Shown one piece after another: positions 7,030 through 64,000 of a stretch of 64,000 bases of DNA. A program made the position numbers and the translations under genes. Origin of the DNA: Bispira polyomma (Eukaryota); the NCBI GenBank assembly GCA_965649765.1, contig OZ287759.1, positions 1,860,001 through 1,924,000 on the forward strand, read 5' to 3'. The notes under the pieces were generated by a model. The model did no database searches. It was given only the letters and a program-made list of their open reading frames with translations, and was not told where the DNA came from. The first letter of the stretch is position 1; each line of letters starts with the position of its first letter.

Positions 7030-8225
7030 CTAAAAAGTCTTAATGCTAAGATTTGCATATTAAGAAGTAACAATTAGTAACAACAATAGTATTTCTTATT
7101 TTAATTAGTAACAACAATTATATAACCTATATAACCATATTTATTTTTTAACTCTTTTGGGTAATCACAACTACCCTGTCAAGTCACCAGCTCACACTAA
7201 GGTCACCTTGATGCACCAGTACAGAATCCGATTAGGATGACAAATGAGGCCTTTTTGGACTTGACAGACCGGATTTGCTTTATATTACAAGATTTGTTGA
7301 CTAAGCTAAAGACACTTGTCATATCTGGGCCTTATGGGAGGCTTATAGGCACAAATAAAAGTGCTACTTTTATGTGTTAGCTACAAGTGATTGATAAGCT
7401 ATTATATGTTGTTTTTCGAGCCGGCATCCAGACAAGTGTGTTTGCAGCGGCTGCCTAAGTTTGTTCACGATAGGTTTTAGAAGCTGAGGAAGTAAGTAAT
7501 TGGCCCACAGATTGCTTAACATGATTCGGATGCAATGACATAATCCAATTTCACTTGAAAGCTGTAGGTTTGTTGATACACCTGTACTGGGGTTATATTA
7601 TCCTATGAAATTTTTCGTATCAGATTTATAGATTATAAAATATTTGATGTTTTCTTGTAAAAACTGTTTTCACTTCCACTGTTTATTTTTTTGTTATTCA
7701 CACCTCTTTATTCCGAGCAAGTATTAATTACCAACAAAATTAAATATTCCAATTCATATATCCAAATAATAACTTTTACTGATGATTACCTTTTGATTCA
7801 TTTTTTATCTTATGAGTTTATATAATGTATTTATTATCTCTGCATGGGAGGTTATATTTTGCCTAATGACCATTGGGTTGTTTCTCACCTGGATTACTAC
7901 TGAACTAATATTAGTTTAAAATATGTAATTTGATTCAAGAAAGAACTTTGGAGTCAATCCGAGTATAAAATCGGGTGATGAGTATAATTTTATTGGACTT
8001 TGAACTTTCGTCTAATAGTCTGGAATTCCCACACAAAGGCACTTTGTTTTATATGACAAGATTTGTTTGCTAAGCTAAAGACTCTCATCATATATGAGAC
8101 CAATAGAAGGCTTGTCTCTTTGAAAGGCACTGATAAAGATGTTACTTTTATGTGTCAGCTGCAATTTGATAAGATTCTACACAGCATGTCTACATGTCTT
8201 AAAGTCGCTCAGGGACTAGATAAAT
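7030..8225 (+). repeat. Old local repeat unit, similar to about 10990-12150 and to counterparts in duplication copy B
   Basis: The block gatgacaaa..ttggacttgacag.ccggatttgc..caagatttgtt.actaag.taaagacacttgtcatatc occurs at ~7237, ~11118, ~60540 and ~62923, and partially at ~8055. Confidence 0.7.
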
Positions 8226-8639
8226 CATCAGTTTCCTGTTGTTGTCTAATTTTTTATAAGTATTTAATTCATTGTCTATATTAGTAAAATCGTAATGCAT
8301 GCTATAGTCATTTGTAAATTGGCTTATAGCCAAATCACTTAACTTTAACTTAAAATGCTTATAGTTATGTTGATGCACAATGAGTGCATCATATGTAAAC
8401 CTCAACTAGTACGAAAATAATATGTTATAGTGTTCAATCAAAACTTGTATATAATCTAGTGTTAGATGTTAATTTTAGTGTATATGTGTAGAACTAATAA
8501 AGCCCAAAAAGTGCCTTTATGTGACTTGGTGTTTCTGTCCTTGTTTCTCTGACTTACATCATAAAAACCAATGAATGCTTACAGATATTCATACTTCAAT
8601 GGAATGACTTGGACTGTGGTCTGCAGCAATTCCACACAA

Positions 8640-9300
8640 ACAGGTGGCTCAGTTTGTGAGCACTTAAATATATATTTTGGCTATAAGATATATTATATTA
8701 AAGAAATGATAGAGTCAAGTGTGTGGTACCCAAAAAGTATATCACATTCTCTATGCTTATTTTGATACATTTTTTAATAATAAATAGTTGTATTTTATTC
8801 CACCAATAATTGCTTTTAACACAGTAAAACATTAGGTGTGTTTCATCTTCTAAATTATTTACAAGCCCACAATGGAGACTATCTTTAAAGCCCAATAACA
8901 CATTAAGAATCCTATATTAGAACCAGATAATGGTATTATCTGGAATGCAATCAAAACCTATGTCAAAAACCAATTTTCAGCCTGATGAATCTGCTCTACA
9001 CCCTAAGATTTTATCCCATTTTTGCTTGAGTAATAGCCACGATGGTGCAACATTAGGAAAATAGCCTTAAAATTTCTCTCAATCTGGGGCCTTAATTATC
9101 AAAGGTTTAAACTTAAAATAAATCTCAAACGCCACATACAAAGATTTCCTTATTAATGCAAATCACTTTAACATGTTTAGAGCTTTGAGTAAGAAACTAA
9201 AATATTTAGTCAGATTAGAGATATATTACTTGTACACAAAGATACAGTATGACAGATGGTGATATTGCAAGTCTCCTTAGCCTCAGAGACATCAGAGTAC
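8640..9300 (-). mobile_element. Tx1/L1-like LINE ORF2 C-terminal remnant (absent from duplication copy B)
   Basis: WF*YRIL...HCGLVNNLEDETHLMFYC...WNKIQ resembles the C-terminal zinc-knuckle region of L1/Tx1 ORF2. Boundaries are approximate. Confidence 0.6.
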
Positions 9301-10249
9301 TTCTGTCAGAAGATGAAATTATTTTTATGCTGGAATATTTTTGTGTAAAATAGTCTCTTTATTGTTATACCGCACAATTATTTATAATTGCACATCTGTC
9401 ATTTAGTTGACCCAATTTATATGTATATATTGTAACTGTACTTTGAGTACGAATGTATAATAAAACAAATAAATAATTTGAGTTACAGTTTAACAGATTT
9501 GATAAATACACTCACAGTGACATTTGGGATACAATGTCACAGGGAACATGATACAACATTTTTCTATATTAATAAAACTTTGGTATGGTCAGGATGGTAA
9601 AATACTCCCAGGAACAGACAAAAACATTCCATGTCAGTTATCAATTCTCATCCCACTGATTTAAAATGTAATAACTCAATGAAGCAGAATAAAAACAAGA
9701 GCCAATTATTGATACTTGTTTTGACAACACATGAACAGAAACTATTATCAAGGCCACGGACATTGAGAAAGTTTACACAAATCAGGTTATAAGATGACCT
9801 CAAACTAACTGAAGTAAGCTTTAACTGTAGACTTGTTAACAATTAGTTTTGTTCTTCGAAAAGGGAACGTAATACAGAATGACACAAATCTAAATTGAAA
9901 AAAAAAATTAAACTGACATTCAAGTATGAAACAAAAATAAAAGATGTCCCTGAACATTGTTAAATACCAAATATTCAATAATGTATCTCTCTAGAGAGTC
10001 AGATGCCTAATGCTTACAGACAGAGGAATTATCTCAGCCACTGATGTGGTAATATTTTGACGTGTAATTTGAGAGCTATTGTTATAATCTGGGGACGGTT
10101 TGTATAATCTTTATAAAAAGGACTCTTAAGATGGTAATGTTACGTGAAGGGATCAAAGATGCAGGCATTGGAAGATTTTTTATTACCCGCACCAAGGATA
10201 TTATTTCTTCACCAATTTCACTTGGTTGTTTTGTTTGTATTATACAAAA

Positions 10250-10372
10250 CTTTCACTGGCCTCTCACCAATGTGGGACAGTTTGTCGGGTACTTGGCAGG
10301 ACACTGGTTTATTCCACCATTAAATTTGGCCGTCTTCAAATGACTGAAGCTGTTGAAAGGGACGTAAAACCT
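10250..10372 (+). mobile_element. SINE remnant (3' part); second copy at about 62170-62290
   Basis: 3' end gctgttgaaagggacgtaaaacc matches the tail of the SINE at 19049-19208. Confidence 0.55.
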
Positions 10373-13300
10373 GACTATTTTCAAATTCACATAAATACAC
10401 AAACATAATAAGTAGACATGATCTAATGAAGAATCCATTGAAGTCTGGCAGATCTAGAAATTTGTTATCCAGTTTCCAGCTAAATCTCTTTTAACGGAAT
10501 TTTTTACATTGTGATTTTTTTTTCTCAAGCATGTTAACAAGTTAAAATAGTGTAAAACAGTGTAAATATTGTTTATATCACTTTAGTTCTTCTATGATTT
10601 GAGCATGATTTTTACATTCCTTTGGGGTTAGCTATTTTCTTGTGTTTCAGTTTAAATTGAAGATTGAAAACCATTACAGAGTTGTGTTCCGATGCCAAGG
10701 CGCAACAAAAAAGTGAGACAAATATAAAGTTTGATCCCTGAGATAACAAACAAACAAACAAACAAAAACATAACCTCTTTGGCAGAGAGGTAATAATAAA
10801 GACCGGAAAAGGGGTAACCATGTTTGTTAGATTTGAATAATTTGGTCAATTAAAGACATCTTTGTAATAAAACAAAAATAGCTTGGTTCCCTTTGCAGCA
10901 GTTATGCCAAAACAGTACAAACCCATAACAAAAGGTTTACTGAGTACAGCTTGTGAAGTAATGTTTTTATCACCAATCTTATTACTTGAAAAAAGAAGAT
11001 ACACGTAGCCTTATAACTAAGAAATATATATTAAGAACTACACAACTAGCAACAACAATTAACCTTTATAAACATAGATTTATATTTTCATCTATTTATC
11101 ATGTCTTTTTAAATTAGGATGACAAACGAGCCCTATTTGGACTTGACAGGCCGGATTTGCTTCTTATTGCAAGATTTGTTCACTAAGTTAAAGACACTTG
11201 TCATATCTTGGTCCTATGAGAGGCATATCTTTTTGATAGGCACAAATAAAAGTGCTACTTTTATGTGTCAGCTGCCATTTGATAAGATTCTACGTAACAT
11301 GTCTTAAAGTCACTCAGGGGCTAGATAAATCAAATTTTTGTTGAATATTATTGTTTTTATTATTATGGTATATTTGGTAAGGGTCTCATGTTTGCGCAAA
11401 GAGACCTATTGAAATTTTAATGAAACAGAACAAATTTTGGGCACACAAATGGATAGGGATACTCAACTGTATTCGTTTTTCCAACAGCCTATAATATAAG
11501 CTATGGGATGTTGTTTTTGGGTAAGCATACAGAAAAGTGTATTTGCAGGGGATGCTAAAGTTTGTTCATGATAGGTTTCAGAAGCTAAAGAAGTTAGTAT
11601 TTGGCCCACAGATTGTGTAGTGTGATTAGGTTGCAATAACATGATCTGATTTCACTTGAAAGCTGGATGTTTGTTGATGGACTATAGATGTTATATTCTC
11701 TGATAACATTTTTACATCACTTATACAGATTTTTAAAGATTTAATGCATGTTTTTTCACTTCCACTGTTTTTAAAAATATTGTTTTCACACTTTGTATTG
11801 CGACCAGAAAGGTCAACTGGGCTGGTGTCTATTTTATATGGCATTTAAGTATAAATTACCAACAAAATTAAATATTCCAATTCATATAGTCACCATCAAA
11901 AGCTTACTGCTGATTACCTTTTAATTCATTTTTTTCATCTGATGAGTTTATATAGTGCATTTATTGCATCAGGGGGTTTGTCCTGCCAATTGGGTTGTTT
12001 GTCACCAGGACAACAACTGAACCAATTTTCCAATTCCATTTTAGTTTAAAATATGTAATATGGTTTAAGAAAGAACTTTGGAGCAAGTACGAGTAGAAAA
12101 TGGAATGCAATTATTTAGTATCATTTTATTTTACATTAAACTTTCGTCTCATCCCAATCTGAGATTGAGACTTAGATGACCGTTTCTGATTAGAGGTCTT
12201 CTTATCTCATTAGGTCCCCAGTGTTACAGGCTAATGAACCATTGGGAAGAGTTGACAAAAAGGTGTTGACAAAAGTGTCAAACTTTTTTTCTGATTTATA
12301 AAATTGCTATTTTATCATAGTCTCTAAAGACAGGTGACATATCTGGGCTACTGATGTAAAAAGTCTGCTGTTGTGTAGATGGGGCAACAGTCAAAGTTCT
12401 GTGGACTAAATAAATTGTATTTTAAGTGTAGTTTCAACTAATAATCTATTTTTTTTAATTCATTTATAATTCAGTTTGAATAAACCCTTGTTAGGTCAAT
12501 CTCGTGATCTAATTAATAAGTCATAATGAATGATATATTTGTTGTACCTTACCACAGTTTTATGTACATAGTAGTAAAATGTTCACTCAGTATATAGCTT
12601 GGTTTTGTTCCCTCCCCTTAGTTACCTCCCCTTAGCTCCCTCCTTGTATACCCCCACATCCTTCCTTATGACCATGCTTTGTTTGTGGATTTCTCTATTG
12701 GTTATCTGGGTCTGTTTTTGCAGTTTAGAAGATCATTATGGTTCATTCAAAATCCATAACACAATACAATATCGGCAAGTCTGATCTTGAAACAAATATG
12801 TATTGTCAGCAATTATGTATTGTTTGTAAAAAATAATATAATTAACATTAAATAAATATTTCTCTTTAATGCATCTTGGAATATACAACGAAAACTTTAT
12901 TATTGTAAACAACAATTTATTAGCAACGAAAGTAATATTTAGTGGCTACAAAATAGTGCAAACGGGAAATATATCTGTTGTCATACAACAAAAATATGTA
13001 AGAGGCCAGTGACTGCGACGCAGGTGCTTCTCACCACTAGATTAACCCCTCATGGGTTAGAAGAAGGTGTGCAACGCTATCTCAAGTGAGAAATTTAGGG
13101 GTAAAATATTAATACCTTTAAGGACCTTGTCAGTCAGCAGTCGACGTCTATGTCATGAAACCCGCCATGAAACGTTGTGACGTCATGAAAGTGGGTCAAA
13201 GTATTCTCCCTAGGCATAGGAAAATGACTCTCCATGGGAGGCGAAAGTGGTGATGAGGTCAGTTTCTTCGTCTTGGTAGAGTGAATACTATCATTTGCAC

Positions 13301-22461: not shown

Positions 22462-22513
22462 GTGAGTATGATATCTATATTATTACTTTTTATTACGCAC
22501 TACACTATGTAAG

Positions 22514-22646
22514 AGTAGTAGTAAGGGGAGTGATTCACGCTGATGATTAGTGCCCAATTTGTGCCCAATCCCATGTACTTGTGCACAAAATGAAAAAAGC
22601 CCGTGACCTTGAGTCTTTTTGCCCTCTTATAGATTTTTTACTTTGA
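22514..22646 (+). repeat. Left terminal inverted repeat (133 bp)
   Basis: Starts AGTAGTAGTAAGGGGAGTG; reverse complement of 44673-44805 with 2 mismatches. Confidence 0.98.
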
Positions 22647-22829
22647 ATGATTACATTATGAATTGTCCTTTCTAATTGTTCTGTCATACCCAACATTATG
22701 GTTTCAGATTTCAAATTACTCTCGCATTCACAACTCAAATTTTGGGAACATCATAAAATACTATTAAACTATGTACATATTTTATTTATTTTTATATATT
22801 ATTATTTTTTTTTTTTTTACTTGCATTTT

Positions 22830-23064: not shown

Positions 23065-23850
23065 CTAACAGATCCCTGTAGACATCATGGTGTCGTTCTC
23101 TGGTAAGCACTTTTCACACACCAACTTTTCTAACAGATCCACGTGATTTTTGCTGACAATACACGTCACCTCCTCTGCAGCCAGGGGCAGTACCTCATAG
23201 ATCTTCTTGTATACCCTCGTCAGCTCACAAAGATTTTTGTACTTCAGGGATATGCCTTTTCTGGTTGGAAACCATTCATTTTCTCCCAGCTCCTGGTTCT
23301 TGCTGTACCAAACTCTGATATTGGTAGTTTGGTAAGGAATGCAAACAGTAGCAAATATATGTTCACCTAAATGCTCTTTGAAATTTACCTGCAAATCTTG
23401 GAACATATCTCTCAGAAATTACTTTATTTTTTCTAAATTATGCACCAGTGCATTGAAGGTTGGCATAGACATATTCAGGTAATTTCCAATACCACCATCC
23501 TTATGAGTATACATTTGAATCCAGACTTTACCCTGTTGACAATGTACCTTTAGATTTCTACCCATTCCCAGATCAAATGGTTTTTCTAATCCCTCAATAA
23601 CACTCTGTTGTGAAATTTTCTCCTGTTTTTTTTCCTCTAGGCTCGACTCAGCTACTTTAACATCTTCTACTTTGTCTTTCTGCATATTGCCCTGAATTGA
23701 CCTTATTTTTTTTATCTCATCTTTTAAAAAATCTTCTGCTGTAGTCAATTTATTTTGATGTAGATTTATTTTAAGTTGAGTCAATTTTCTTTTTTTAATC
23801 TTTTTCTCACCACTCATCTTGCCCTTGTTTTTTATCACCTCCGAATTCAT
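23065..23850 (-). pseudogene. Tandem PC4-like ssDNA-binding/coactivator protein (one in-frame stop)
   Basis: ORFs 23419-23850 and 23065-23406 are in frame across a TAA (KIK*FLRDMFQ). Motifs FDLGMGRNLKV..QGKVWIQM and NIRVWY..PTRKGISL are PC4-like; basic N-terminus. Confidence 0.75.
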
Positions 23851-27087: not shown

Positions 27088-27909
27088 CAACCAGCATGGG
27101 TGATCCCCATTACTGCCCAGCAACCGGAACAGCAGTCTCAGCGACACCTTCAACTCTTACTACCTCCTCGCCAGCAGCCACAACAACAGGCTGTTCACCC
27201 TCAACAGCAGCACCTAAAACAGGCTGATCAGTCTCAACAACCTCGTCAACCTCAACAGCCACACCTACAACAGGCTGATCAGCCTCAACAACAGGCTCTT
27301 CACCCTCAACAGCAGCACCTACAACAGGCTGATCAGTTTCAACAACCTCGTCAACCTCAACAGCAGCACCTACAACAGGCTGATCAGCCTCAACAACAGG
27401 CTCTTCACCCTCAACAGCAGCACCTACAACAGGCTGATCAGTCTCAACAACCTCGTCAACCTCAACAGCAGCACCTACAACAGGCTGATCAGCCTCAACA
27501 ACAGGCTCTTCACCCTCAACAGCAGCACCTACAACAGGCTATTAGGTCTCAACAGCTGCCACAACATCAGGCTGGACAGCCTCAACAGCAGCACCTACAA
27601 CAGGCTATTCGGTCTCAACAGCTGCCACAACATCAAGCTGATCAGTCTCAACAGTAGCTCCTACAACAGGCTCTTTGGCCTCAACAGCTGCCACAACATC
27701 AGGCTGATCAGCCTCAACAGCAGCTCCTACAACAGGCTCAGCATCCTCAACTACATGACCTACAACAGGCTGAGTACCAATTTCAAGAGTTACCTCTACT
27801 CAGTCTTCAAGATTTAGATGATTTTGAAGATTTTCTGAGAGGGGAGACAATGAATTCCTCTATGGAGGTTAATGTTGACTCCTCTAGTGAGGATGAAGTT
27901 TACTACTGA
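27088..27909 (+). pseudogene. Gln-rich repeat + acidic tail, exon 2 of the RING gene (one CAG>TAG stop)
   Basis: Phase-0 acceptor tttttgactctatttag. Frame-preserving 105-nt and 66-nt tandem units; continues past the TAG at 27655 to LSLQDLDDFEDFL...DSSSEDEVYY*. Confidence 0.7.
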
Positions 27910-29880: not shown

Positions 29881-30980
29881 TTATTGAAGGGACAGACTAT
29901 CAAATGATCCGAAGGTTGTATCTAAATCTACTTCTATATCTATGTCTCCTCCATTCACATTATCATAACTTTTATAGATATTTTCTTCAACTTCCTCTTG
30001 GTGGTTGTGTAAATGTTGACATTGAGGTTTTTCATACCTATTACAAGAAAGAAATTATTAAAACTATTTTTCTGAAATATTTCTGTGATTAAAAAATTGG
30101 TTTTATATTTTAAATATTAAAAAAATAATTAATTAATATAACTAATATACCAATCACTGTCATTTTCGAAGAATTCAATCTCTCTGGAAGCTGTATATAT
30201 GGGATTAGGTTCCATTTCAAAATCTTCCAATATTAGGTTGTTTGGTGGACTGTTGGAGCTTGCATGTTGTTTTTTACAGTTGCAAATAACTACTGTTATT
30301 CCAAAAATAAAACTCAGTAGAGTACCGATTACAGCTATAATGATAGCTATATCATTAGATATTCCAGTATTACCCTTTGGAGTGATGACAACATCGACTG
30401 TAAAGTCACTGACTGAGCTTATTTCATTTTCTACATCTGCTATGGTAGGGGAGGTAATTTCTGATACATAATTGGAAGTAGTCAGTTCTGGTACTGTATA
30501 TTTAACTGTGTGCACTAGTACTTTTGATGCTCGAAATCTCAGCGGTACTTGAGTAGAAATCTCAGTACTTAACTCAATTTTTGTAACCTCGATAATGGAG
30601 TTGGTGGTCAAGGATGAGGTGGTGCTTTTCAATCCAACAGTGGTCAAAGATGAGGTAGTGGTTTTCAATGCGACACACATGTTGGTGATAATTTCAATAT
30701 CTTTAGGAATCTGATTAAGAATATCACAATCAAATTCTCTCATGGAAATAAATGAAATCCAATATATCTTCGGAAAACTATGAAGAATAACTTGGATATC
30801 CATAAGTTTAACATCCTCAAAATATACCCTTTCAACTAGAGTATTTCTCCCTTCAAATTTCGGGTTATTCACACTCCTACAATTCACTAAAGTTAACCGA
30901 CAAGTACACCTGTAATCACACATTTCTATTGACAGGAATGATATTATACTCAAAAGCAATAGAATCTTGAAGTGAGTCAT
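29881..30980 (-). CDS. Type I membrane glycoprotein B, two exons (30980-30151 + 30037-29881, 328 aa), apparently intact
   Basis: Signal peptide, LRRNT-like CDYRCTCRLTLVNC, Ser/Thr-rich stalk, TM IAIIIAVIGTLLSFIFGITVVI. A 113-nt phase-2 GT-AG intron restores W-YEKPQ...ENIYKSYDNV...SLSLQ*. Confidence 0.8.
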
Positions 30981-31695
30981 TTTAATAGAAATTATTTTAA
31001 AATTTGTTAATTCAATGTCCTATTATATACCACTAGTTCACAGAAATTTATATGTAACTGTTCTCTCCAGTACCCACAATCAAAACTGATTCATTTCTAC
31101 AAACTCTCTATTTCTCAAGTTCTGGATCTTCTATCTCTTGCATAAATAAACATAGCCGCCAAACATAATATCATTAATCTCCTTATAATTGTCACTTTTA
31201 TTGCTCTCTCTGTTTTGGATACAATCTTAACTGTTTTATTACCTAAACAATTCAGTTGAAGTAGATGAATATATAGAAACTGACTTTTCAGTTTGGAACT
31301 AAGAGTATGTTTCCATACAGACGATTGTTTTTTATATTATTTTTTTAGGAGATTTGTAATGGCTAGTTTTTTTTGTTTTTGTTTTTTTTTTTTTTTTAAC
31401 TAGACCGAATAATGAATCCCTATTTAGTGAGATTCCTTGCTGTTATTTTGAAGGCTGAATCATGAAAAGGGACAGAACGGCTTCCATAAGGAAAATGTTG
31501 TAAATCAAAATTGGCATATATAGAGGTAGAATCTGCTAAAAATAAATACACCCCCTCATTCCTTATATATGATATAGTTGCCGATTTTGACTTATTCCAT
31601 GCCAACGAGGTACAGATCAATTAATATAAAATAAAAACGAAATCACAATCACTGAAACAACACTGTCGGGCATGTTATGACAATTTAAATTCTTT

Positions 31696-32548: not shown

Positions 32549-35500
32549 ATGGAGTGTCCATATTGCCACAAGTTTCTGCAAAGGAAAATACATCTTCAAA
32601 GACATTTAACTATTAGTCGAATTTTGAGGAGTGTTAAAAAAATATTATGTCTATTTTGTCAAAGTCACTTTACTGATGTTAACACTTTAATAAGACATAT
32701 GAATACCTGCATTCCTTATCATTTGTCTCTTAATGTTATAGCCAAGTGTTCTTTTTGTAAGAAGTGTTTCAAAAATACAGATCAAAAAGAAAGCCATGAA
32801 AAAAGATGTTTAAAATGTTATAAATGTGGAAGTATTCTAAAAAGTCTTATAGAAAAGAACATTCATCTTAAAAATTGTAGAGTTGACAATTTGCAACAGA
32901 GGATGGAAAAGATTGTACTCATAAAATCAAACGTGTTAAAATGAATGAAAGGACTCGTGAATCTAGGTTTTGAGAATTTGAAAGATTATGATGATATAGA
33001 GAATTCGGGTAATAAACACCTAAATTTTCTTTGTAAAAAATGTAAAGTTTATTTTGATACAAACTGGGATTTGTATATTCATAATATCTCGTCCCACAAC
33101 CAAACAGGTAGGCAAAGAGTCTTACAAGAACCAGTTCTAGAACCAGATTATGAATTTGAATCTGATGATATGGCAAGAGCATACAATACCAATGTGCAGC
33201 ATATATTAGCTCAACACAACAGAGGGGCTTTAAGGTCAACCTATAATTTTCCAACTAACGATCTTTCTAGGGGAATGTGGGAAATTTCAGATCACTTGAA
33301 TGAAATTTACAATGACCAAAACTACGCCTTTAAAATTAACATATCACTAGGTCTGATTCTCAGAAATACTGGAAATGATGAGTACTGTTATTACGTACCC
33401 TTTTATAATAATCAAGTTTTTCCAGTACCTGTAACCATATCTCGCAGAGCTAATATCAGACATCTCTTTCTCAGAATTAGGCGATTAGATATCCCCGATT
33501 TCATTCGACAACAGAGACCAAACAGTAAATGGGTCCCCGCAATGATTACAAATATAAATTATGTTGTATTTCCTACCTCATATCCTTTAGGTAAATTAAT
33601 TGGTTCTCTCCCAGGTTACATAAAGAATTCTCGAGCAATTAGGGGTTGGATAACAATAGTGGAGGTAATTTTTATGAAGATAATTTATGTGCGTTTAGAG
33701 CTTAGGTGCTACATAAACAAGGAGAAGAAGAAGATTGTGAGAAATTGTTAAACTACCATTATCAATGGTGTGATTTTAATAATAAAGAAGAACATCATTC
33801 CAATTTTTCTGGATTAAATTTGAGTGAACTCGACCTTTTCGAAAATTGTTTTAAATTAAATATCAATGTTTATTCACTAAAACCACAGGGTGTGGTATAA
33901 ACGGTTTATAAATCTATGGAAAATTTTAAACAAACTATGAATCTAAATCTCTATAAAAATCATTTAAGGTATATTCAGGACATTTCTCTATATAGTAAAA
34001 CATATCAATGCATGGAATGTGAAAAAATCTTTAAAAATTAATTTAAACTGAAAACTCATCTTGATAAATGTTTTAACAGAACACGATACATATTCCCAGG
34101 GGGGTTTTACTCTTCACCCAGAAGCATTTTTGATAAGTTAGAGAGTTGTGGAATAATGGTTGATTCACAACGAAGGTTTTATCCTTACTTTGCTGTTTAT
34201 GATTTCGAATCTGTTTTATTGAAGGAACAAGACACCACCTTAGACTGCAAATTAAAATATACTGTTAAACATAAACCCATCAGTGTTTCAGTTTGTTCAA
34301 ATATAGTGCGTTATGAAACTGCCAAATGTTTTATTGAAACGGATGTAGATAAACTTCTCCATAAAATGATCAACTATTTGTGTGAAATAAGTGAGGTAGC
34401 TGCACGATTAGGACAAGAAAGAAGGGAAGATGTATTTGAACAAATTGTTTGTTTGAAAGAGAACAATTTGCAAGGACAATACACTCATAAACACATTGAA
34501 GGTCTAGAAAACGAATTTGAAAGATACATATCACAAATACCAGTTTTAGGATTTAATAGTGGAAAATATGATTTAAATTTGATTAAAGCAGAATTAGCTG
34601 GACACTTGTTTAAAGACGGAGAAAAAGGTAACTATACAATCAAGAGAAACAACAATTACTTATCTCTAAATTCGAGTAAATTTAAATTTTTGGACATTAC
34701 TAACTATATTGCACAAGGAGTTAGTTACTCTAAGTTTCTCAAGTGTTATGAAGTAGAAGAAACCAAAGGTGTTTTTCCTTACGAATGGTTTGATTCAGTA
34801 GAAAAACTTGAATGGACAGAATTACCACCTTATGAGTCATTTTATTCGACATTAAAACACTGTAATGTTCTGGAAACATATGAAAATTATACAATACTAC
34901 AAAAATCATGGAAAGAAAAGAAGATGATAAATTTTAGAGATTACTTACAATGGTACAATAATCTTGATGTAGAACCTTTCTGTACTGCTATAACAAACAT
35001 GCAGGAATATTACTTTAATAAAAGTATTGACATTTTCAAAAATTACATTTCAGTTCCAGGAATTGCTAGAAAAAGCTTTTTGATTCTACAGATGCTAAAT
35101 TTGCTCTATTTGATAAAAACAATAGGGATTTATATGATACCATGAAAAATGGAATTGTAGGGGACCATCTATTATTTTCAGACATTATCATGAGGTTGAC
35201 AAAACTTTTGTTAGAGAAAATAAATCCAAACCAGTCAAACATAGAAGGAAGGGATTCCAATGCATTATATCTCTGGAGAATTTCCCAACCTATGGCTACA
35301 GGAATATATGTACGAAGACATAAAGATAAGGCTTTCAAAGGTGAGGTACCAATGAAATATTTAGAACAATTCATCTGGATAGATTACGTCGCTGAACAAG
35401 AAAATGTTCAAATACAACACGGTTTAAATTCAAGAGGAGAATAACGAATTGGCCCCTACTTAGTAGATAGATATGATGCAAAGAATAAAAGAGTGCTGGA

Positions 35501-37411
35501 ATTTTTAGAATGTTTCCATCATCAACATAGAAACTGTCCCTTAATAGGAAAAAATCAAAATCCAAAATATCATAAAGACAGAGTCATTTCTAAAAAGGGA
35601 AATAGAACGAAAAGACTACATAAAATCTTTAGGATATGACATAGTTGAAATGAGGGAATGTGAGTATCAAGCAGATATTAAGCACAAAACAGAACATATC
35701 AGAGAAAAATATTTATCCAAATTTTATATCAAACACAAAGGTAAGGTTTCAAGCTCTAAACTCATTGAGGCTGTTAAAACAGAAGAAATATTTGGAGCAA
35801 TGGAGGTTGATATAGAAGTGCCTGATTCTTGGAAAGAAACTAACATCTTTTCGAATGGACTCTCCCCAAGTGATTACTTTAGTGAAATGTCCCCTTTCTT
35901 TGCAAGGACAGAGGTACCTTTTGAGGTTGTAGGAGCTCACATGCAGAGACATGCAGAGAATTTTGATTTATCTAAAAAACCTAGAAATTCATTGGTTGGA
36001 GGAATGAAAGCAGAAAGAATTTTTTTAGCCACACCCCTTTTAAAATGGTATTTAGAACATGGTATAGAAATCACTAATATATATCAGGTTGTAGAATATG
36101 TTCCGAAAAATTGTTTTAAAAATTTTAGTCAGAAAATATGTGATAGAAGGAGAGAAGGAGATTTAACCCCTGACAAGGCCCTAATAGCTGAGCTCTCGAA
36201 ACTTTTGGGAAACAGCGGCTTTGGGGGAACAATTATGTCCAAGGAGAGACACCTGGATATTAAATATGTGAAGGGAGAAAGAGAGGCAAGTTTATTAGTC
36301 AATGTCCCTACTTTTAAAAATTTAACTGAATTAGGAAACAGTATGTATGAGGTTGAAAAGTTTAAAAATAGAATTAAACTTGATTTACCAATTCAAATTG
36401 GTTATTTTATTTTACAATATGCCAAGTTAAAACTGTTGTCTTCTTATTATGATTGTCTAGACAGATATATTCCGAGATCAAACTTTGAAATGTTAGAAAC
36501 AGACGCAGATAGTGCCTACTATGCACTTAGTCAAAGTTCTTTTGAAAAAAAGTATTAGACCCTCCTTACTGTCTGAATATCGGAAAGATGTGTGTGGTTT
36601 TTGTTCAAATCTTATCACTCCGAAGTGGTTTCCTAGATTGTGTTGTTCAAAACATATAACTTTCGACAAAAGAACCTTGTCTTTATTTAAAATTGAAAGT
36701 CTTGCTACTAAAGCTATATGCCTGAATTCGAAGACATACATAATGAGAGAACTAAATGAGTCTGATAAAATTTTTTGTAAAGGCATATCAAAGTCAAGTC
36801 TCAATAATGCCATGGAGTTGTTTGAAAGTGTGCTTCATAACCAAATACCACTTTCTTCAACCAATATCGGTTTTAGAGCAAAAAACAATATAATTTTTAC
36901 TTACACACAGGATAGAGCAGGCTTCTCGTACTATTATATCAAAAGGGAGGTTTTGGATGACGGAATTCATACCAAACCATTAAACATGGTTTTGAAACCA
37001 TGGAAACAAAAAATTGTTATAGTTGAAAATGATCTTGACCTACTATCAAACGGTTTTTGCTTTGAGTTGAAAGTCGATGGAAAGACGTATTCAAGTGTTG
37101 AAGAATACTTTCAAGAAAGGGAACATGATTTCAATCCAAATGCAAACACTAGTTTGGAGGAGAATTGGGAGTGGTTTCAAGAAAGAGACAAGATTATGCA
37201 AGAAATTTTAAAATTAAAAGTAAAACAGTGTTGTAATTTTGCTCAGATCTTAAAAAATACTGGGAATTCTTATATATGTTACAATGCTTCAGATAATTTG
37301 TATTGGAATGTGGGTTTACCGCAGAGACTAGTGAAGGTTATAAATAAAGATTCTCATCCAGGTCAAAATCAAATGGGAGAGATATTGATGAAAGTTAGAG
37401 AAACATTATAA
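32549..37411 (+). pseudogene. Protein-primed DNA polymerase B with N-terminal zinc fingers, internal nuclease-like insert and C-terminal NADAR-like domain
   Basis: ZnF CPYC..HLQRH; exonuclease motifs VYDFES, FNSGKYD and YNNLDV; KGVFPYEW; polymerase motifs DSNALY, KLLGNSGFG and ETDADS; end YIKREVLDDGIHTKPL. Multiple stops and frameshifts. Confidence 0.95.
37037..37411 (+). other. NADAR/YbiA-like domain in frame with the pPolB C-terminus
   Basis: LLSN..F..KVDGKTYSSVEEYFQ / W...RDKIM.EILKLKV.Q...F.QILKNTG / YW.VG / PGQNQMGEILMKVRETL follows the NADAR consensus LSNF..DG..Y.S.EHYFQ...KF.Q....L..TG...WG.G...G.N.LG..LM.VR..L. Confidence 0.85.
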
Positions 37412-37413
37412 AA

Positions 37414-38046
37414 ATGTCCATAAAATTTGAAGATCCAGCAAGTATACTTATTCCTGGTTGTAGTAATTCTGGTAAAACCACTTTTCTGTATCAGTTGTTA
37501 AAGTGTAAGGATGCAATGTTCCAGAAACCTGTATGTAAAATACTATACTGCTATTCTCTTTGGCAAAATATTTTTGATAAACTACAAGATGAAATAAATA
37601 TAAAGTTCATTAAGGGTCTGCCTGAGGAGATAGAGATAGATAGCATGAATGACGGGAATCATAATATTTGTATAATAGACGATTTGCAGGAAGAAGTGTC
37701 TGGAAATAAAGTTATTGAAAAATTATACACAACCCTCTGTCATCATTATCACCTCACAGTAATAACTATTTTACAAAATTTATTTTATCAAGGTAAAAGC
37801 TTAAGAACAATCAATTTAAATAGTCATTATTTGATATATATTTAAAAACCCCGAGATATAAATCAAATAATGTATTTAGGAAACCAAACTGGGTTAAAAA
37901 AGACTTTAGAAGAAGCATATAAAAATGCAACAGACGAAAGCTACAATTATCTCTTAGTTGATCTCTCTCTGCACTCATCTACCCAATATAAATTAATAAG
38001 TCATATTTTGCCGAAAGAAGATACTGTGGTATATCTTAGAAAGTAA
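37414..38046 (+). pseudogene. A32/FtsK-like genome packaging ATPase (frameshift near 37840)
   Basis: Walker A GCSNSGKTT, Walker B ICIIDDL, ILQNLF, RTINLNSHY, then FKNPRD and YLLVDL in another frame. Confidence 0.95.
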
Positions 38047-38057
38047 GTAATATAAAT

Positions 38058-38380
38058 ATGAAGGGTAGGCTTAAAATGAATGGAGATTTTGTAAGGTTTT
38101 TATTAAGCACACACATCAAACAAAGATATGCAATAATAAAAACTTTAAATGAAAGACAGACTGGAGTAATTTGGAAATAATTCTCAATATTCTGAGATTG
38201 GTTAATTTGAAAAAGTACAAAACATAAATCAGTAAAACTTTTAGACTTTGGAAGATAATAACCAATAAAAAATGAAAAAGAAAGGAAAAGATTAAACTCC
38301 TAAAAAATAATGACAAAAAAATAATAAGTCTCTTAGATTTGTTTAGGAATGATCTATTAAATTTAATAACAGAATGAATA
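38058..38380 (+). pseudogene. Small basic Polinton ORF downstream of the ATPase, frameshifted
   Basis: MKGRLKMNGDFVRFLLSTHIKQRYAIIKTL...; position typical of Polinton core clusters; broken frame. Confidence 0.45.
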
Positions 38381-38787: not shown

Positions 38788-38835
38788 TATAAAAAGAGAA
38801 AAAAAGCCACAATATGCTTGGATTTTAAATAGACA

Positions 38836-39959
38836 ATGGACGAAAATCAGGAAAAATATCTACACAACCTTTATTACAATCCAAAAAATGCAGTGTCTTA
38901 TAGTGGTTTCAATAAATTTTATAGTTTCATCTAAAAAAACAGTCAGCAAAATTTTTCCAAAAAGGATATTAGGGAATGGTTGGGAAAACAAGATGCTTTT
39001 GTCTTGCATCGACCTGTGATAAGACATTTTAAATGTCCAATTACCATTGCAGTGAGAAAAGATCAACAATGGAATTCAGATACAGCCAATATGAGAAAGT
39101 TTGAAAAAGTCAATAAAGGTTATGGTCATTTTTGTGTAGTGATAGATACTCTAACTAGATATCTGTGGACCTTTCCAATGCAGACACTGACAGGAATAGA
39201 AATGAAAAAAGGTTTTGAAAATTTAATGAAACAGATAAAACCAAAATTTCTATTCACTGACAAAGGCAATGAGTACATGCCTAATATTTAGATTGGTTAA
39301 AGGAAAAAGGAGTTCAACATTTCATGAGCACCAATGAAACAAAGGTGGCGATGGCTGAAAGAGTAATAAAAACAATCAAACTAAAACTGTACCGAAGGAT
39401 GACAGCAGAAAACAATTATAAATGGAATGATGCGCTTGCTAGTCTCACAGAGTCCTACAACAATTCCTTTCATAGAATGATTAAAACCACTCCTTCAAAG
39501 GCGAGGGAAATGGATGATTATGAGTTATGGAAAAATCAATATATTAAAGACTACGATGTGAAAAAACCAAAATTAAAGAAACACAAAAAACCAAGATCAG
39601 AAAAATTACCTTATAAATATAAAATAGGAGATATAGTAAAGGTTGCGTATCTATCCAGACCTTTCGAGAGAGAATATGATGAGAAATATTCTGGTGAAAA
39701 TTTCACCATTGCTGATAGAAATATAAATCAGGGTAAGGCTCAGTACAAATTGAAAGATCTAAATAACGAACTAATATTGGGAAATTTTTTTAATAAGGAA
39801 TTGCAAAAGGTTTATGTTTCTAAAGAGACCACATATCGAATAGAAAAAATTCTGAAAAGTAGAAAAAGAGGGGGTAAAAAGGAATATTTAGTAAGGTGGG
39901 AAAATTATTCCTCAAAATTCGATAGCTGGGTGAAGGAAGAAGACATTCAGGATATATAA
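38836..39959 (+). pseudogene. Retroviral-like (RVE) integrase with C-terminal chromodomain
   Basis: LYYNPKNAVSYSG; DDE triad WNSD, TDKGNEY and AERVIKT; YNNSFHRMIK; chromodomain YRIEKILK..EYLVRWENYSSKFDSWV. Stop and frameshift present. Confidence 0.96.
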
Positions 39960-39997: not shown

Positions 39998-40366
39998 ATG
40001 AATCAATTATACCTACATATTCATTCCACCGATTCGATAAATCTTCACCCACAAAATGATGCATGGGAATTTATTGTAGAAATAGTAGAGGGTATAGAAC
40101 TTGAAGGGAGATGGAAATGTGGTCTAGCAGAAATTAGATATGATAAAGAGGTTGTAGAGGAAATATATGTATATTGTGACATTGTTGATGAAAGTCTGAT
40201 TGAAGATTTTTGTAGACCTATTTTAAGAGTGGTAGATAAAGCTGAACATTACAATCAAATCTACTATAAAAGGGTGAACAGAACAAATCTAGAGAGAATT
40301 AAGGTATATATAACTAGTAAAAACTTAAAAAAACTAAACATTTCAAATACCCCTACGTGGTTTTAA
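39998..40366 (+). CDS. Minor capsid protein (penton, single jelly roll), compact; C-terminus possibly frameshifted
   Basis: LYLHIHSTDS..HPQN..EF...IELEGRWKCGLAEI..IYVYCDIV..PILR..YYKRV..I.VYI. Confidence 0.85.
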   Translation: MNQLYLHIHSTDSINLHPQNDAWEFIVEIVEGIELEGRWKCGLAEIRYDKEVVEEIYVYCDIVDESLIEDFCRPILRVVDKAEHYNQIYYKRVNRTNLERIKVYITSKNLKKLNISNTPTWF

Positions 40367-40675: not shown

Positions 40676-40771
40676 TGAATATACCTTAAAAAATATATAC
40701 ATATATAGTGTTAGAGTCAAATAATCTTTAGTTCAATTCTTGCTTTTGAGTGAATAAAAAACAAAATTAAA

Positions 40772-42075
40772 ATGAATGTCTTACAGGAAAAGGTGGCTCT
40801 ATTTCAAAAACTTTTGATAGATCCATCAGTCCATCATATTGATTGGGTTGAATACAGACCAACCGGTCAAATTAAAAGTGGAAATGTAATTGAATTTAAT
40901 GTAACAGGGGATGGGGCGGATTATATAGATTTGAAGAAAAGTAGATTGCATATTTCAATGAAAATTACAAATAGTAATGGAAGTGACTTAGCGTCGACTG
41001 CTATAGTTGGTCCCGTCAATTTAACATTACATTCTCTCTTTCGTCAGGCAGATCTAACTCTACAGCAAATCAATATTTCACCAGGTGTTGGAATTAACTA
41101 TCCATACAAAAGTTTGATAGATGTATGGTTACATAATAGTTTTGTGAGTCAGCAGGGACAGTTGGAAAATGAATTGTTTGCAAATGACACAGCTGATACT
41201 CATAATGATGTAACTGGAGATGACAATATAGGGTTTGCTACTAGGCAAGACAGATGTGCAGCAAGCACAGTAGTGGACTTATGCGGCCCCTTACATGTGG
41301 ATATTGCCGATCAAGATAGACTCATTGTAAACAGAGTGCAGATCAATCTAAAATTATATCCCAGCACTGATAGATTCAGATTAATGACAAAGGATGGAGA
41401 TAAGGAGTATAAGATAGAAATTATTAATGCTGCTTTAAAGATCTGTCAGGTAAAATTAAGTCCCGAGCTCGTACTAGCTCATGCAAAGGCTTTGAAGGTG
41501 GGACCAGCATTATACCCTTTCTGGCAAAGCAAATTTAAGACTTTTACCATACCAAAAGGTAATATGATGTGGAGTGATGATGGAACCTTTCATGGAGAGG
41601 TTCCTAGCAAATTAATTGTGGGTTTTGTTCCAGGAGAAGGTTATAGCGGTAGCTATACTGTAAATCCATTTAAATTTCATCACTACCATTTAAATTACTT
41701 GGAATTCAGTGTAGATGGTGTGCCCGTTCCATGCAGACCACTTCGATCAAATTATAAAGAAGGATATTTGACTAACAGACCTACTTTTACTGGAGGACAA
41801 TACGCAGAAGCATATAATAGCTTGTTTTCTTTGGAGATATGGTGAAAATGAGAACAATCTTATTAAATATACAGATTATCTGAATGGATATTGTCTTTAT
41901 GTGTTTAATATAGACAGTAAATGTGAGTGGTGAACTTAAATCAGAACGTAAAAAGGGTCACACAAGAATAACTGTAAATTTTGGAAAAGCTTTAGTAGAA
42001 AGTGTAACTGCAATATTATATGCTCGTTTCCCATCTATGTTAACTATTGATGAGGCAAGAGTTGTAGAACAATGA
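40772..42075 (+). pseudogene. Major capsid protein (double jelly roll), C-terminal frameshifts
   Basis: WVEYRPT, YIDLKKSRL, PVNLTLHSLF, NYPYKS, NPFKFHHY; ends KGHTRITVNF...TIDEARVVEQ* with the stop overlapping the protease ATG. Confidence 0.93.
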
Positions 42076-42518
42076 ATACTTCTGAAATAAAAGAAAAAAT
42101 GTTGAATGATAGATTCATCAGCAAATATTATGGCGGTGTATATGCAGCAAATGAATTACCAGTAAAATTTCAAAATTTACCTAAAATTCTGATTGTAAAC
42201 ACAAAACCTTACCCTCATGAAGGGGAACATTGGGTAGCAATGTATGTAAGTAAATAAGAGGCGGAATATTTTGATTCTTTAGGTGATTTAGCTCCGAAAA
42301 GTTATGAAAATTTTCTGTTGAGACATCAGGAGAGTTATAGCAAAAATAACGCAAGAGTACAAAGTTACAAGAGCATGTTATGTGGGGAATATTGTCTATA
42401 TTACGCTTACCATAAATTTAGGGGAAAGAGCTATACTGATATCTTAAAGACTTTCGATAAAGATTATAAAGTTAATGATGTGAATATAAAATCATTTTAT
42501 ATTTCGAAATTCATTTAA
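42072..42518 (+). pseudogene. Adenain-like cysteine maturation protease (one in-frame stop)
   Basis: NT...GEHWVA, EYFDSLG, VQ...CGEYC catalytic motifs; both ORF pieces are in the same frame. Confidence 0.95.
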
Positions 42519-42571
42519 AATGCCAATGGTTTAACCTTTTAATCAATAATCATCAAAGTAGATAAATCAAT

Positions 42572-42910
42572 GCTGTCAAAGTAAATATTGACACATTATT
42601 TGGTTAAATTAACAAAGTAAATAATGATGAGGTAATTGGATAAACAAAGCTGTCAAAGTAAATAGTGAGACATTATTTGGTCAAGTTGTCAATGTAAATA
42701 ATGATGAGGTTGTTGGTTAAACAAAGCTGTCAAAGTAAATAATGAGACATTATTTGGTCAAGTTGTCAATGTAAATAATGATGAGGTTGTTGGTTAAACA
42801 AAGCTGTCAAAGTAAATAATGACAGAGTATTTGGATAAATAGTCAAAGTAAATAATGATGAGGTAATTGGTTAAACAATGCTGTCAAGGTAAATAGTGAT
42901 GATGTAATTG
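42572..42910. repeat. 77-bp tandem array (about 4.4 units, each with two related subunits)
   Basis: gctgtcaa at 42572, 42649, 42726, 42803 and 42880. Confidence 0.95.
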
Positions 42911-43025
42911 ATGAATAAATTATGAATTGTGAGTAATGTTTTGGTGAAATAAAAGAAAATGACTCAATTTTAAAAAAGGATATAAATTGGGAAAGCAACC
43001 ACATTGCAGTCAGAAAGGAAACAAG

Positions 43026-43640
43026 ATGGCAGAGAATACAACTCAAAGGAGAACAAGGGAAGATGAGACTGACTGTGTTGTTGCAGCCTCTGCATCTAGT
43101 TATAGAAGAAGAATAGATATGCAAGACAGAATAAGTGAACTGACAAAAAAGTTCTGCAATTTCCAATGTGAAGAAGAATCACTGGCTATGACTAGGGATT
43201 GGGTAGATTACAAAATCTTCAAAAACAGATTAGAAAGTTTCAGAGGTTGGCCAAAAAGTACCGGAGTGAGTGGAGAGGATGCAGCCAGGGGGGGATTTCG
43301 ATACACTGGTTAAGGTGACAGTTGTGTATGTCCGTGGTGTTACATGCAGGTGAAGAACTGGAAACACTTTGATGAACCGTTGAAAATGCACTCCAAACTC
43401 AACCCAAATTGCGAATACGTGCAAACTGTATTCCCTAGTGAATTGTCAAAAATTGAAAGAGGTAATTATAAGTTGTATCAAAATCGTCTGGAAAGCTACA
43501 GAGGGTGGAGCGATGGCAAGATAGTAAAACCAGAAAAGTTAGCCAGAGCTGGATTGATGTACACTGGTTTAGGGGACAGATGTCAGTGCCTCTGGTGTTC
43601 TATAATTTTCCATTCCTAGGAGTACCTGGACGAACCCTAA
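43026..43640 (+). pseudogene. Inhibitor of apoptosis-like protein with two BIR domains (stops; second BIR truncated)
   Basis: RLESFRGWP..AARGGFRYTG*GD..CPWC-x16-H-x6-C; RLESYRGW..LARAGLMYTGLGDRCQCLWC. Intronless. Confidence 0.93.
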
Positions 43641-44626: not shown

Positions 44627-44672
44627 AAGAAGGTGGTAGTATGTGGAGGTAGCAAAATCCTAATGGATTCAA

Positions 44673-44805
44673 TCAAAGTAAAAAATCTATAAGAGGGCAA
44701 AAAGACTCAAGGTCACAGGCTTTTTTCATTTTGTACACAAGTACATGGGATTGGGCACAAATTGGGCACTAATCATCAGCGTGAATCACTCCCCTTACTA
44801 CTACT
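44673..44805 (-). repeat. Right terminal inverted repeat (133 bp)
   Basis: Ends CACTCCCCTTACTACTACT, followed by TSD TGTAAG. Confidence 0.98.
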
Positions 44806-45205
44806 TGTAAGGTACTCTATTACGATGATATATCGACAAAAAATTGTTTTAAAGGGCGCCAATGAAAATTTATTACAAAAAGACATTTTCGTAACTTTCT
44901 AAAGTTTAAATGTGGAATTTAATCATTTTTGAAACCAGTTATTGAGCTAAATTTACAAATTGATAAAATAGATATCTTAAACAATATTTTAGTACATACA
45001 AGTCAATTTTACACCATTTTAAACATGATTTTGAAGCGATTGTTTTGGGTACCAACTTTATACTTTTATCGTTCTTTCGTTTCAAACTTGCATTGTGACA
45101 TCATGATAGAGAGAAGGTTTTCAAATGTCAACAATGTTTACTATTTTAGGTCAGTTTTTCTTATATTTTGTTTGATTTATAACATGATAATAAAATTACT
45201 GTTCA

Positions 45206-63011: not shown

Positions 63012-64000
63012 AAATACTAAAAGTTCTTCTATAGCGCAAAATCTACACAAAGTAATCAATGCGCTTAACAGCATAAATTATAAATTAATGCTCAAAAGCA
63101 CAACTGAAAAAATGAGTTTTTAGTTTCTTTTTAAAAACACTGACTGCTGTACAGGTTTTCAGATGCTTTGGTAGAGTGTTCCATAGCTTAGGTCCACAAA
63201 CAGAAAATGCCCGATCTCCAAAGGTTTTTAACTTTGCCTTAGGAACTGTTAGCAAGTGTTCACTTGATGACCGCAGTAGTCGTGTGCTTTTGTGTGGAAG
63301 CAGCAGATCTTGGATATAGGGAGGTTCCAATCCTCTGATTGATTTAAACACCAAGAGAACAATTTTGTATTGAATCCGGTATTTGACAGGTAACCAATGC
63401 AGTGTTCTCAAGCATTCAAATGAACTTCTGTGCTCCATATTTGAATCTAACACAAGTCTAGCTGCACAATTTTGAACTCTTGCCGAGTAGTATAAATTCA
63501 GTTTTACCCTGGTTTAATTTCAACTTGTTGTTGCTCATCCACTTGTTAATAGCATCAATACAGTTTTCAAGATTACATACTATATCGGCTTGATTGTCTA
63601 TTTTGGGACTGAGGGATGTATAGAGTTGTGAGTCATCAGCATAAAGGTGATACTGAATGAGATGATGTCCTATAATCCCAGCCACTGGCTTGGTATACTT
63701 GCAGTAGAGGTCAGGTCCCATGACTGACCCTTGAGGTACACTATACTTCAAAGTATGTGGTTCAGATTTAGCACCATCTATCACTACACTTTGACTTCTC
63801 TTATCCAGGTATGAGTGAAACCACCGGTGAGCTGTGCCTTGTATACCATACATGTCATTCAATCTATTTAAGAGGATTTTATGATCAACCGTGTCGAAGG
63901 CTGCTGAGAGATCAAGAAGTGTTAACAGAACAACCTTCTTGTTATCCAGTTCAAGCAGAATATCATTTACCACCTTCAATACTGCTGTTTCAGTGGAGTG
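63012..64000 (-). mobile_element. Distinct L2/CR1-group LINE RT 3' end, running off the window and interrupting duplication copy B
   Basis: LDLSAAFDTVDH, VPQGSVMGP, YADD, LHWLP, GDRAFS..GPKLWN.LP and FKKKLKTHFF. Confidence 0.93.

Follow-up and report, generated by a model that had tools for sequence, protein, structure and literature searches.

In this work, a 64,000-nucleotide stretch of the genome of Bispira polyomma (contig OZ287759.1 of assembly GCA_965649765.1, positions 1,860,001 to 1,924,000; hereafter, the window) was analyzed, and a NADAR domain was found fused to the C-terminus of the protein-primed DNA polymerase of family B (pPolB) of a Maverick/Polinton element. The fusion itself is confirmed. 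The domain is probably a catalytically dead accessory module of the polymerase, kept for a structural or a weak phosphate-gripping role. A preliminary description of the window, made from its letters alone, had seen the domain and proposed a built-in eraser of DNA ADP-ribosylation; this interpretation is partly supported, in that the domain is genuine, whereas the sequence of the window copy gives no evidence of an eraser. The pPolB-NADAR protein is a new architecture within known kinds; it is lineage-wide, mostly a pseudo-enzyme, and has rare intact members.

The end motif of pPolB, KREVLDDGIHTKPL, is encoded at 36941-36982, and the frame continues for 142 codons to a TAA stop at 37409-37411. 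A NADAR tail of about 135 aa starting at 37037 had been proposed; the family assignment holds, while the tail is longer and the domain starts near 37010 (37010-37408, as delimited by profile, fold and alignment). The tail matches the Pfam family PF08719 (NADAR) with 55.1 bits (E 1.4e-14, cut-off 35.1) and Escherichia coli YbiA (2B3W) with E 1.3e-5. Eight of nine sister sequences also exceed the PF08719 cut-off, and the one below it is a truncated copy. The AlphaFold model of the tail, built from a 65-row alignment, has a mean predicted local distance difference test score (pLDDT) of 92.7. The Foldseek check suggested by the preliminary description was run on this model and gave the NADAR structure 8BAU (E 1.7e-6, TM 0.72), with 8BAU and 2B3W being the only matches at E <0.001. 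The top three VIA-align rows are likewise all NADARs: 8BAU (Z 13.7, root-mean-square deviation 3.1 over 135 residues), 2B3W (Z 11.3) and 8BAT (Z 5.7), against Z 3.5 for the best non-NADAR row, and the model has the alpha+beta fold of YbiA.

The window pPolB gene (32549-37411, plus strand, start approximate) encodes zinc fingers, an exonuclease, a VSR-like insert recognized by eye, the polymerase and NADAR. Set against a sister copy, it is split over four frame segments and has four in-frame stops; from the window alone, just the last 289 aa are therefore seen as a fused product (last stop-free segment, 36542-37408). Three sister loci encode single open reading frames (ORFs) of 1256, 1659 and 1669 aa, with exonuclease and polymerase motifs and a NADAR end, and in none of them does a stop separate pPolB from NADAR. 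When the final 790 residues of one sister were modeled, the polymerase part matched the phi29 and adintovirus polymerases and the NADAR part matched NADARs. The predicted TM-score (pTM) of this polymerase+NADAR model is 0.86 over 790 residues and the linker is shorter than 10 residues, which weakly suggests a fixed packing of NADAR on the polymerase. A complex prediction for the polymerase part versus the NADAR part scored 0.00 with the supplied alignments unused, and has no bearing either way. The VSR-like motif was seen by eye at approximately residues 1005-1035 of a sister ORF, and a restriction-endonuclease-like match is present among the BFVD rows.

Other arrangements of the same frame were considered and rejected. 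Chance read-through, or decay peculiar to the window copy, is ruled out by the unbroken sister frames and by NADAR tails across the sampled loci. A separate NADAR gene is rejected because the unbroken copies have no stop before the domain and a methionine precedes it in subfamily A only. A fusion of NADAR to the downstream ATPase is rejected as well, the ATPase having its own start, 2 nt past the pPolB stop codon. At one locus (L048; C9:50139000-50148500 of the host assembly, G000), a single ATPase is flanked by two pPolB-NADAR ends that point towards one another and have an identical translated C-terminus; this is an inverted duplication inside a Maverick.

The active site was compared with characterized NADARs using the 8BAU numbering of PMC11543638 (the 8BAU chain in the structure alignment is offset by 2); articles are cited here by identifier. 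In 8BAU, E43, K50 and E125 are the mechanistic residues, K75 and R79 shield the pyrophosphates, and the pyrophosphate contacts are K50, R79, W89, R93, W133 and D130; the substitutions D171A/N and K95A, at the positions of E125 and K50, respectively, cause loss of efficient hydrolysis (PMC11543638). In another characterized NADAR, both E167Q and E167D lead to complete loss of activity (PMC12945103). The E125 position is occupied by Glu in the YbiA type, by Asp in DarT-linked proteins and by His in active phage NADARs (PMC11125620).

In the window domain, all on the plus strand, E43 is kept (37100-37102; among the subfamilies of this genome, in that of the window only), K50 is replaced by Glu (37121-37123), W89 and R93, two of the pyrophosphate contacts, are kept (37172-37186), the catalytic E125 is replaced by Tyr (TAC, 37280-37282), D130 by Asn, and W133 (37304-37306) and the C-terminal G-x-N-x-x-G motif are retained. 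After the K50 position, about 18-22 residues are deleted, and the E43-W89 stretch has 24 residues where intact relatives have 42, so the K75-R79 lid is removed. With the catalytic Glu replaced by Tyr and the lid deleted, the domain is likely to be catalytically dead. The preliminary description had correctly noted the kept Glu of the first motif, the deletion and the changed last motif; it understated the damage, since the catalytic position itself is Tyr.

Its suggestion that this loss may be decay of the present copy does not hold, as the same loss is found in every subfamily read in the genome and in 49 of 51 fused domains. Tyr rather than Glu, Asp or His stands at the E125 position in the window and in subfamilies A-C; the more distant families of this genome have Phe or Tyr there, with one locus deleted at this position, and no own-genome NADAR tail read in frame has Glu. 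At the K50 position, where active NADARs have Lys or Arg, the close subfamilies have E/V/K/S, with Glu in the window and Lys in subfamily B only. The E43 position reads E/K/N/I/H in the close subfamilies, K/N/I/H being those of the sisters. The full E43/K50/E125 triad is present in two of 51 full-length fused domains, versus 79 of 124 other NADARs recovered by that same search; the 51-domain set excludes tails shorter than 140 residues, including 18 eroded relatives of 106-134 aa. Tyr or Phe occupies the E125 position in 37 of the 51, W89 is kept in 46, and the best-kept positions overall are W89, W133 and the G-x-N-x-x-G motif. The two fused relatives with the triad (P0002 and P0071) come from other samples, and two probable fragments (P0053 and P0083) also retain it. 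E43 and K50 are kept alongside Tyr or Phe at E125 in P0015, P0153 and L071-L073.

Selection was measured by pairwise Nei-Gojobori comparison of natural copies, with synonymous divergence (dS) of 0.8-2.1. The ratio of nonsynonymous to synonymous divergence (dN/dS) over NADAR is 0.34-0.44 between subfamilies A and B, 0.24-0.40 in comparisons with C, and 0.41-0.52 for the array-bearing copy of subfamily A' (L014). The last 79 codons are constrained in five of six pairs (p 1e-3 to 1e-6; for B1-B2, p 0.054), the first 35 NADAR codons are under weaker constraint, and close pairs within subfamilies are noisy, with dN/dS up to 1.7. In the polymerase tail, dN is 0.15-0.17 for A versus B, where dS is saturated, and 0.11-0.22 versus C. 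Thus, the sister-copy check of dN/dS envisaged in the preliminary description indicates purifying selection on the domain; its persistence after the loss of catalytic residues is best read as that of a kept pseudo-enzyme. Part of the gene pair has also become a tandem array. At C5:44912782-45031206 of the host assembly (L014, L016-L030, L041 and L042), approximately 100 tandem units of 1.15 kb lie within one decayed Maverick. The unit corresponds to 37060-38218 of the window, i.e. most of NADAR and a broken ATPase, and its NADAR frame is open in most units; the dN/dS of the units versus subfamily A is near 1, so the array looks like a young satellite born from the element.

The distribution of the fusion was surveyed in the host genome, where the searches covered the 1.035-Gb assembly in 75 contigs, and in public collections. 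A polymerase-only query of the genome gave at least 150 matches from 364 first-look candidates. All 70 pPolB ends examined among these 150 (the top 30 and 40 picked across more distant families) continue into a NADAR-like tail, in at least five subfamily groups; the weakest tail is a partial match of 20 bits to a profile built here, and some tails are frameshifted. Thirty further loci obtained with a NADAR-containing query (12 repeats) likewise have the tail. In a scan of 1.84 billion proteins, seven of the best 150 representatives are pPolB ends with NADAR, and a profile of the polymerase tail plus the domain gave 120 of 200 proteins listed and four metagenome loci. The pooled set comprises 134 pPolB ends, five from this genome and 129 others, and is biased towards NADAR by its query. 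A NADAR-like tail is present at 73 of them (5/5 and 68/129, respectively), 56 stop within 45 residues, with true ends and truncations lumped together, and five have other tails. The survey of Maverick pPolB C-termini that had been proposed as a check shows a tail common to the examined elements of this genome and to about half of the related ends from elsewhere in this NADAR-biased pool. No relative was found in the IMG/VR scans or in the first metagenome scan, the four loci coming from the second; the ESM Atlas gave generic NADAR clusters only. Word-index protein searches with the window domain or the full-length sister tail had no match, whereas full HMMER and profile scans did.

A pPolB clade (Shimodaira-Hasegawa support, SH, 98) carries a further eroded NADAR tail of 106-134 aa in 18 proteins (P0170, P0172-P0175, P0178-P0180, P0182-P0184, P0188, P0190, P0198, P0211, P0226, P0231 and P0266), and these tails align to free NADARs with an hhalign probability of 98%. 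The members of this clade listed in the profile search carry no precomputed NADAR annotation. Two other proteins (P0001 and P0011) have five tandem NADAR-like domains each, several of them with replaced catalytic residues.

In a FastTree phylogeny of 186 NADAR domains, a branch with SH 91 separates 51 fused domains and five unattached fragments from the 130 others, which fits, without proving, one capture of NADAR by a Maverick lineage. The NADARs of host long interspersed nuclear elements (LINEs) lie on the opposite side of that branch from the fused domains, so a recent capture from LINE ORF1 NADARs is unsupported. After the three catalytic columns had been taken out, an IQ-TREE analysis of 45 polymerase+domain rows never grouped the two that have Glu at E125. 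One of them, P0002, is sister to P0153, a Tyr form with 71% identity, with supports of 100/99, within a 98/95 clade that also includes Tyr, Phe and Asn forms. Glu at the E125 position was either lost repeatedly or regained.

The same genome encodes NADARs on another class of mobile elements. Among 2147 candidates of a NADAR profile search, at least 150 matches were scored, with 137-156 bits. Thirteen of these loci were fetched and 11 were read; in 10 of the 11, the match is in an ORF1-like frame with an endonuclease/reverse-transcriptase-like ORF2 downstream of it, whereas the shown frame of the remaining one (L068) is broken. Pfam confirms NADAR in three of three LINE-type loci tested, and all six host LINE ORF1 NADARs examined have the full triad. 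These loci (L051, L054, L055, L057-L059 and L066-L070) are L1/Tx1-type LINEs of several diverged families, with an ORF1 that ends in NADAR; NADAR on ORF1 of oyster Tx1 LINEs has already been published (PMC12477816). One sister pPolB has an intact NADAR some 7 kb upstream of it; the idea that this is a Maverick gene was rejected, since it is a LINE ORF1. PARP-domain matches number 26 in the host; among them are three long frames arranged in tandem on C1 (70.79-70.86 Mb), which are open for 2326, 1988 and 1640 aa (L125:1027-8004, L126:1864-7827 and L127:1861-6780). Two of these frames were scanned; each encodes a ZNFX1-type superfamily 1 helicase with a pair of PARP catalytic domains after it, and one also has a cold-shock domain. 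They are candidate nucleic-acid-sensing ADP-ribosyltransferases. No family of ADP-ribosyltransferases (ARTs) was found among 22 window frames scanned with Pfam. A Scabin/pierisin-like profile had no match in the host genome, in a search whose controls were blank too and which can miss exons.

Taken together, these data favor a history in which one Maverick lineage would have captured, once, an active ADP-ribosyl-base hydrolase. A few of its descendants would retain the full catalytic set, most having Tyr or Phe at the catalytic position, and in some lineages, including that of the window, the pocket would then have worn down further with the fold preserved. The NADAR domain is predicted to pack on the polymerase end, and the kept Trp-Arg-Trp cradle might touch a phosphate. 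Adenovirid and bidnavirid pPolBs offer a precedent, in that they retain vOTU domains that have been inactivated (PMC11161782). Several observations weigh against this explanation. The lack of hydrolase activity is deduced from residues, and the catalytic position is known to tolerate His (active phage NADARs) and Asp (DarT-linked), so other chemistry is possible. The fixed packing is read from the scores of one model. Net charges of -4, +2 and +1 in three subfamilies show that the domain is not basic, which argues against strong DNA binding. The constraint on NADAR is weaker than that on the polymerase tail (A versus B: dN 0.34-0.44 versus 0.15-0.17). A 39-row related pPolB group lacks NADAR, including named Pecten and Pinctada proteins (SH 81), and hence the domain is not needed by this polymerase class generally. 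The single-origin branch has a FastTree support of just 91, and a quick polymerase tree is unresolved at depth. Finally, the strong bias of the catalytic position towards Tyr or Phe, together with the retention of E43 and K50 in P0015, P0153 and L071-L073, suits a ligand-binding reader better than a module with a structural role alone.

Such a reader or decoy is the main rival: a non-cutting domain would bind ADP-ribosylated bases or proteins and tether, shield or help the polymerase past the marks of host ARTs. We consider it possible, though clearly the less probable account. Besides the aromatic residue in 37 of 51 fused domains and the W89 kept in 46, it draws on the setting, a host with at least 150 LINE-type NADAR matches (full triad in all six examined) and with PARP genes that include tandem ZNFX1-helicase-PARP fusions, and on a phage precedent in which DNA ADP-ribosylation is countered both at the polymerase and by a NADAR (PMC11825919). 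In the window domain, however, the parts that grip the adenine and pyrophosphate of the ligand in 8BAU, K50 and the K75-R79 lid, are gone, and E43 varies across subfamilies; moreover, the N1-guanine marks of human PARP10/15 were not hydrolyzed by the NADAR tested in bioRxiv 10.64898/2026.03.31.715305. The reader is accordingly a stronger proposal for the relatives that keep E43 and K50 than for the window lineage. An active eraser, which would strip ADP-ribose from guanine in viral DNA during replication, is very improbable in this element. It has on its side the NADAR fold, the E43 of the window copy, the triads of P0002, P0071, P0053 and P0083, and the conservation of guanine de-ADP-ribosylation across NADAR subfamilies. 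It is opposed by the Tyr at E125, the Glu at K50 and the deleted lid, by the absence of Glu at E125 from the own-genome tails read in frame, and by the fact that milder substitutions than Glu to Tyr kill known NADARs (PMC11543638, PMC12945103). Since P0002 and P0071 keep the triad, an eraser on the replicase, as first proposed, is a plausible state of the ancestor or of these two lineages, and unsupported for the window element.

The preliminary description also had the eraser acting on the displaced single strand. The C-terminal thumb of phi29 polymerase lies near the product duplex, and no evidence places the NADAR domain at the displaced strand. A neutral passenger, i.e. a once-useful domain decaying slowly at the end of an essential gene, would account for the stepwise erosion across lineages, for a constraint weaker than that of the polymerase and for related pPolBs that do without NADAR; it is quite improbable, because any stop codon would remove the tail, whereas all 70 sampled loci, from at least five subfamily groups, still have it, with dN/dS well under 1 at dS 0.9-2. 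The kept but probably dead module thus remains the preferred explanation for the window. For the origin of the fusion, the two fused relatives that look catalytically intact and the intact LINE ORF1 NADARs favor an ADP-ribosylation conflict. In a broader and rather doubtful scenario, animals of this group would restrict mobile DNA via base ADP-ribosylation, to which LINEs would have answered with an ORF1p eraser and Mavericks with a replicase NADAR that would erase in its Glu form and read in its Tyr/Phe form, a difference found even among relatives with 71% identity. If this were true, no earlier case would be known of a DNA polymerase with a non-catalytic NADAR, here the Tyr form, that reads ADP-ribose.

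The element that carries the window copy is decayed, spans 22.3 kb (22514-44805) and has the features of a Polinton. Its gene content was assigned by comparison with sister copies, the closest of which have 96-98% identity to the window over the pPolB end and the ATPase; the putative capsid and protease genes were assigned via position and motifs. It is bounded by 151-nt terminal inverted repeats with AG termini (AGTAGT start, 95% complementary; 22514-22664, plus strand, and 44655-44805, minus strand) and flanked by the 6-bp target-site duplication TGTAAG (22508-22513 and 44806-44811). The pPolB, recognized by fold in the sister-copy model, is accompanied by a retroviral-type integrase with a chromodomain (38833-39956, plus strand, interrupted; from Pfam and sister comparison), for which the rve match is weak (E 0.003, below the Pfam cut-off) and the chromodomain match is above the cut-off. 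The separate gene for an A32-like packaging ATPase (37414-38046, plus strand) has a Pox_A32 match below the cut-off and is interrupted by a stop. It is followed on the plus strand, beyond the integrase, by a conserved ORF for a putative minor capsid protein (39998-40360, from position only), a putative major capsid protein (40754-42072, from size and position, with no Pfam match), an ORF that we take, from its motifs, to be a putative adenain-like protease (42054-42515), and a BIR/IAP-like gene (42969-43637; Pfam BIR 72.5 bits in a sister copy), which has an internal repeat and is conserved in sister subfamilies. On the minus strand, there are a conserved ORF with a weak PC4-like match below the Pfam cut-off (23086-23736) and a conserved ORF with a hydrophobic N-terminus and no Pfam family (30150-31019). 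Tandem repeats within the Maverick include 33-bp-based units in an ORF (27100-27790) and, in the gap that separates the protease gene from the BIR gene, 77-bp units (42558-42942). Elsewhere in the window, two copies of a long repeat about 53 kb apart (585-11813 and 53849-63012; 88-97% identical in matched blocks) contain endonuclease and reverse-transcriptase-like fragments.

No pPolB-NADAR fusion was found in the literature searched on NADAR/YbiA/DUF1768 with polintons, Mavericks, adintoviruses and transposons; the supplements of PMC10748475, PMC8502044 and PMC12477816 and the Repbase records, which may show the domain, lie outside that scope. In the text available to us, the word NADAR is absent from the main text of PMC11161782 and its preprint, from PMC12721341 and from bioRxiv 10.64898/2026.10.13.758929, and it has a count of 0 in the main text of PMC8502044 and PMC10748475. 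A survey of viral NAD and ADP-ribose proteins (PMC9503650) reports NADAR in phages, giant viruses and RNA viruses, and polintons are unnamed in the passages covered. NADAR is thus an added domain for the Polinton polymerase architecture, alongside the terminal protein (TP), vOTU, exonuclease, VSR or HNH inserts and helicase fusions, and its tail marks a sizeable lineage of animal Mavericks. The natural Glu/Tyr pair P0002/P0153 is suited to asking what a non-cutting NADAR does. Because a single genome has NADAR on LINE ORF1p as well as on a Maverick replicase, the idea that ADP-ribosylation defends against mobile DNA becomes directly testable.

In comparison with known systems, the window domain has the same fold as the NADARs of Phytophthora nicotianae (8BAU) and E. 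coli (YbiA, 2B3W), with W89, R93, W133 and G-x-N-x-x-G in common, and differs from them by the Tyr at E125, the Glu at K50, the Asn at D130, the deleted K75-R79 lid and the fusion to a DNA polymerase. The polymerase is similar in fold to the Polinton pPolB2 with a VSR insert (marine nematode and mollusc class, PMC10748475), the VSR-like insert of the window lineage being a putative one judged by eye, and the shared Polinton anatomy extends to the terminal repeats, 6-bp target duplication, integrase, ATPase, and putative capsid and protease. To the TP-vOTU-Exo-Pol layout (PMC11161782), the window lineage adds a C-terminal NADAR, while its nearest named polymerase relatives, from Pecten and Pinctada, are both without this tail. 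The inactivated vOTU on adenovirid and bidnavirid pPolBs is likewise a dead enzyme domain on pPolB, with a proposed structural role (PMC11161782), although it is an N-terminal protease fold unrelated to NADAR. The NADARs of oyster Tx1 LINE ORF1 and of Ectocarpus Gypsy Pol (PMC12477816) are similar cases of NADAR captured by a mobile-element protein; those are retroelement proteins rather than a DNA-virus replicase, and the host LINE copies keep the triad and fall in another part of the tree. T4 AdfN (gp30.3), the phage anti-DarTG1 NADAR (PMC11825919), is alike as a viral NADAR and provides a functional model for the eraser idea; AdfN is stand-alone and active and counters a known bacterial toxin, whereas the Maverick domain is fused.

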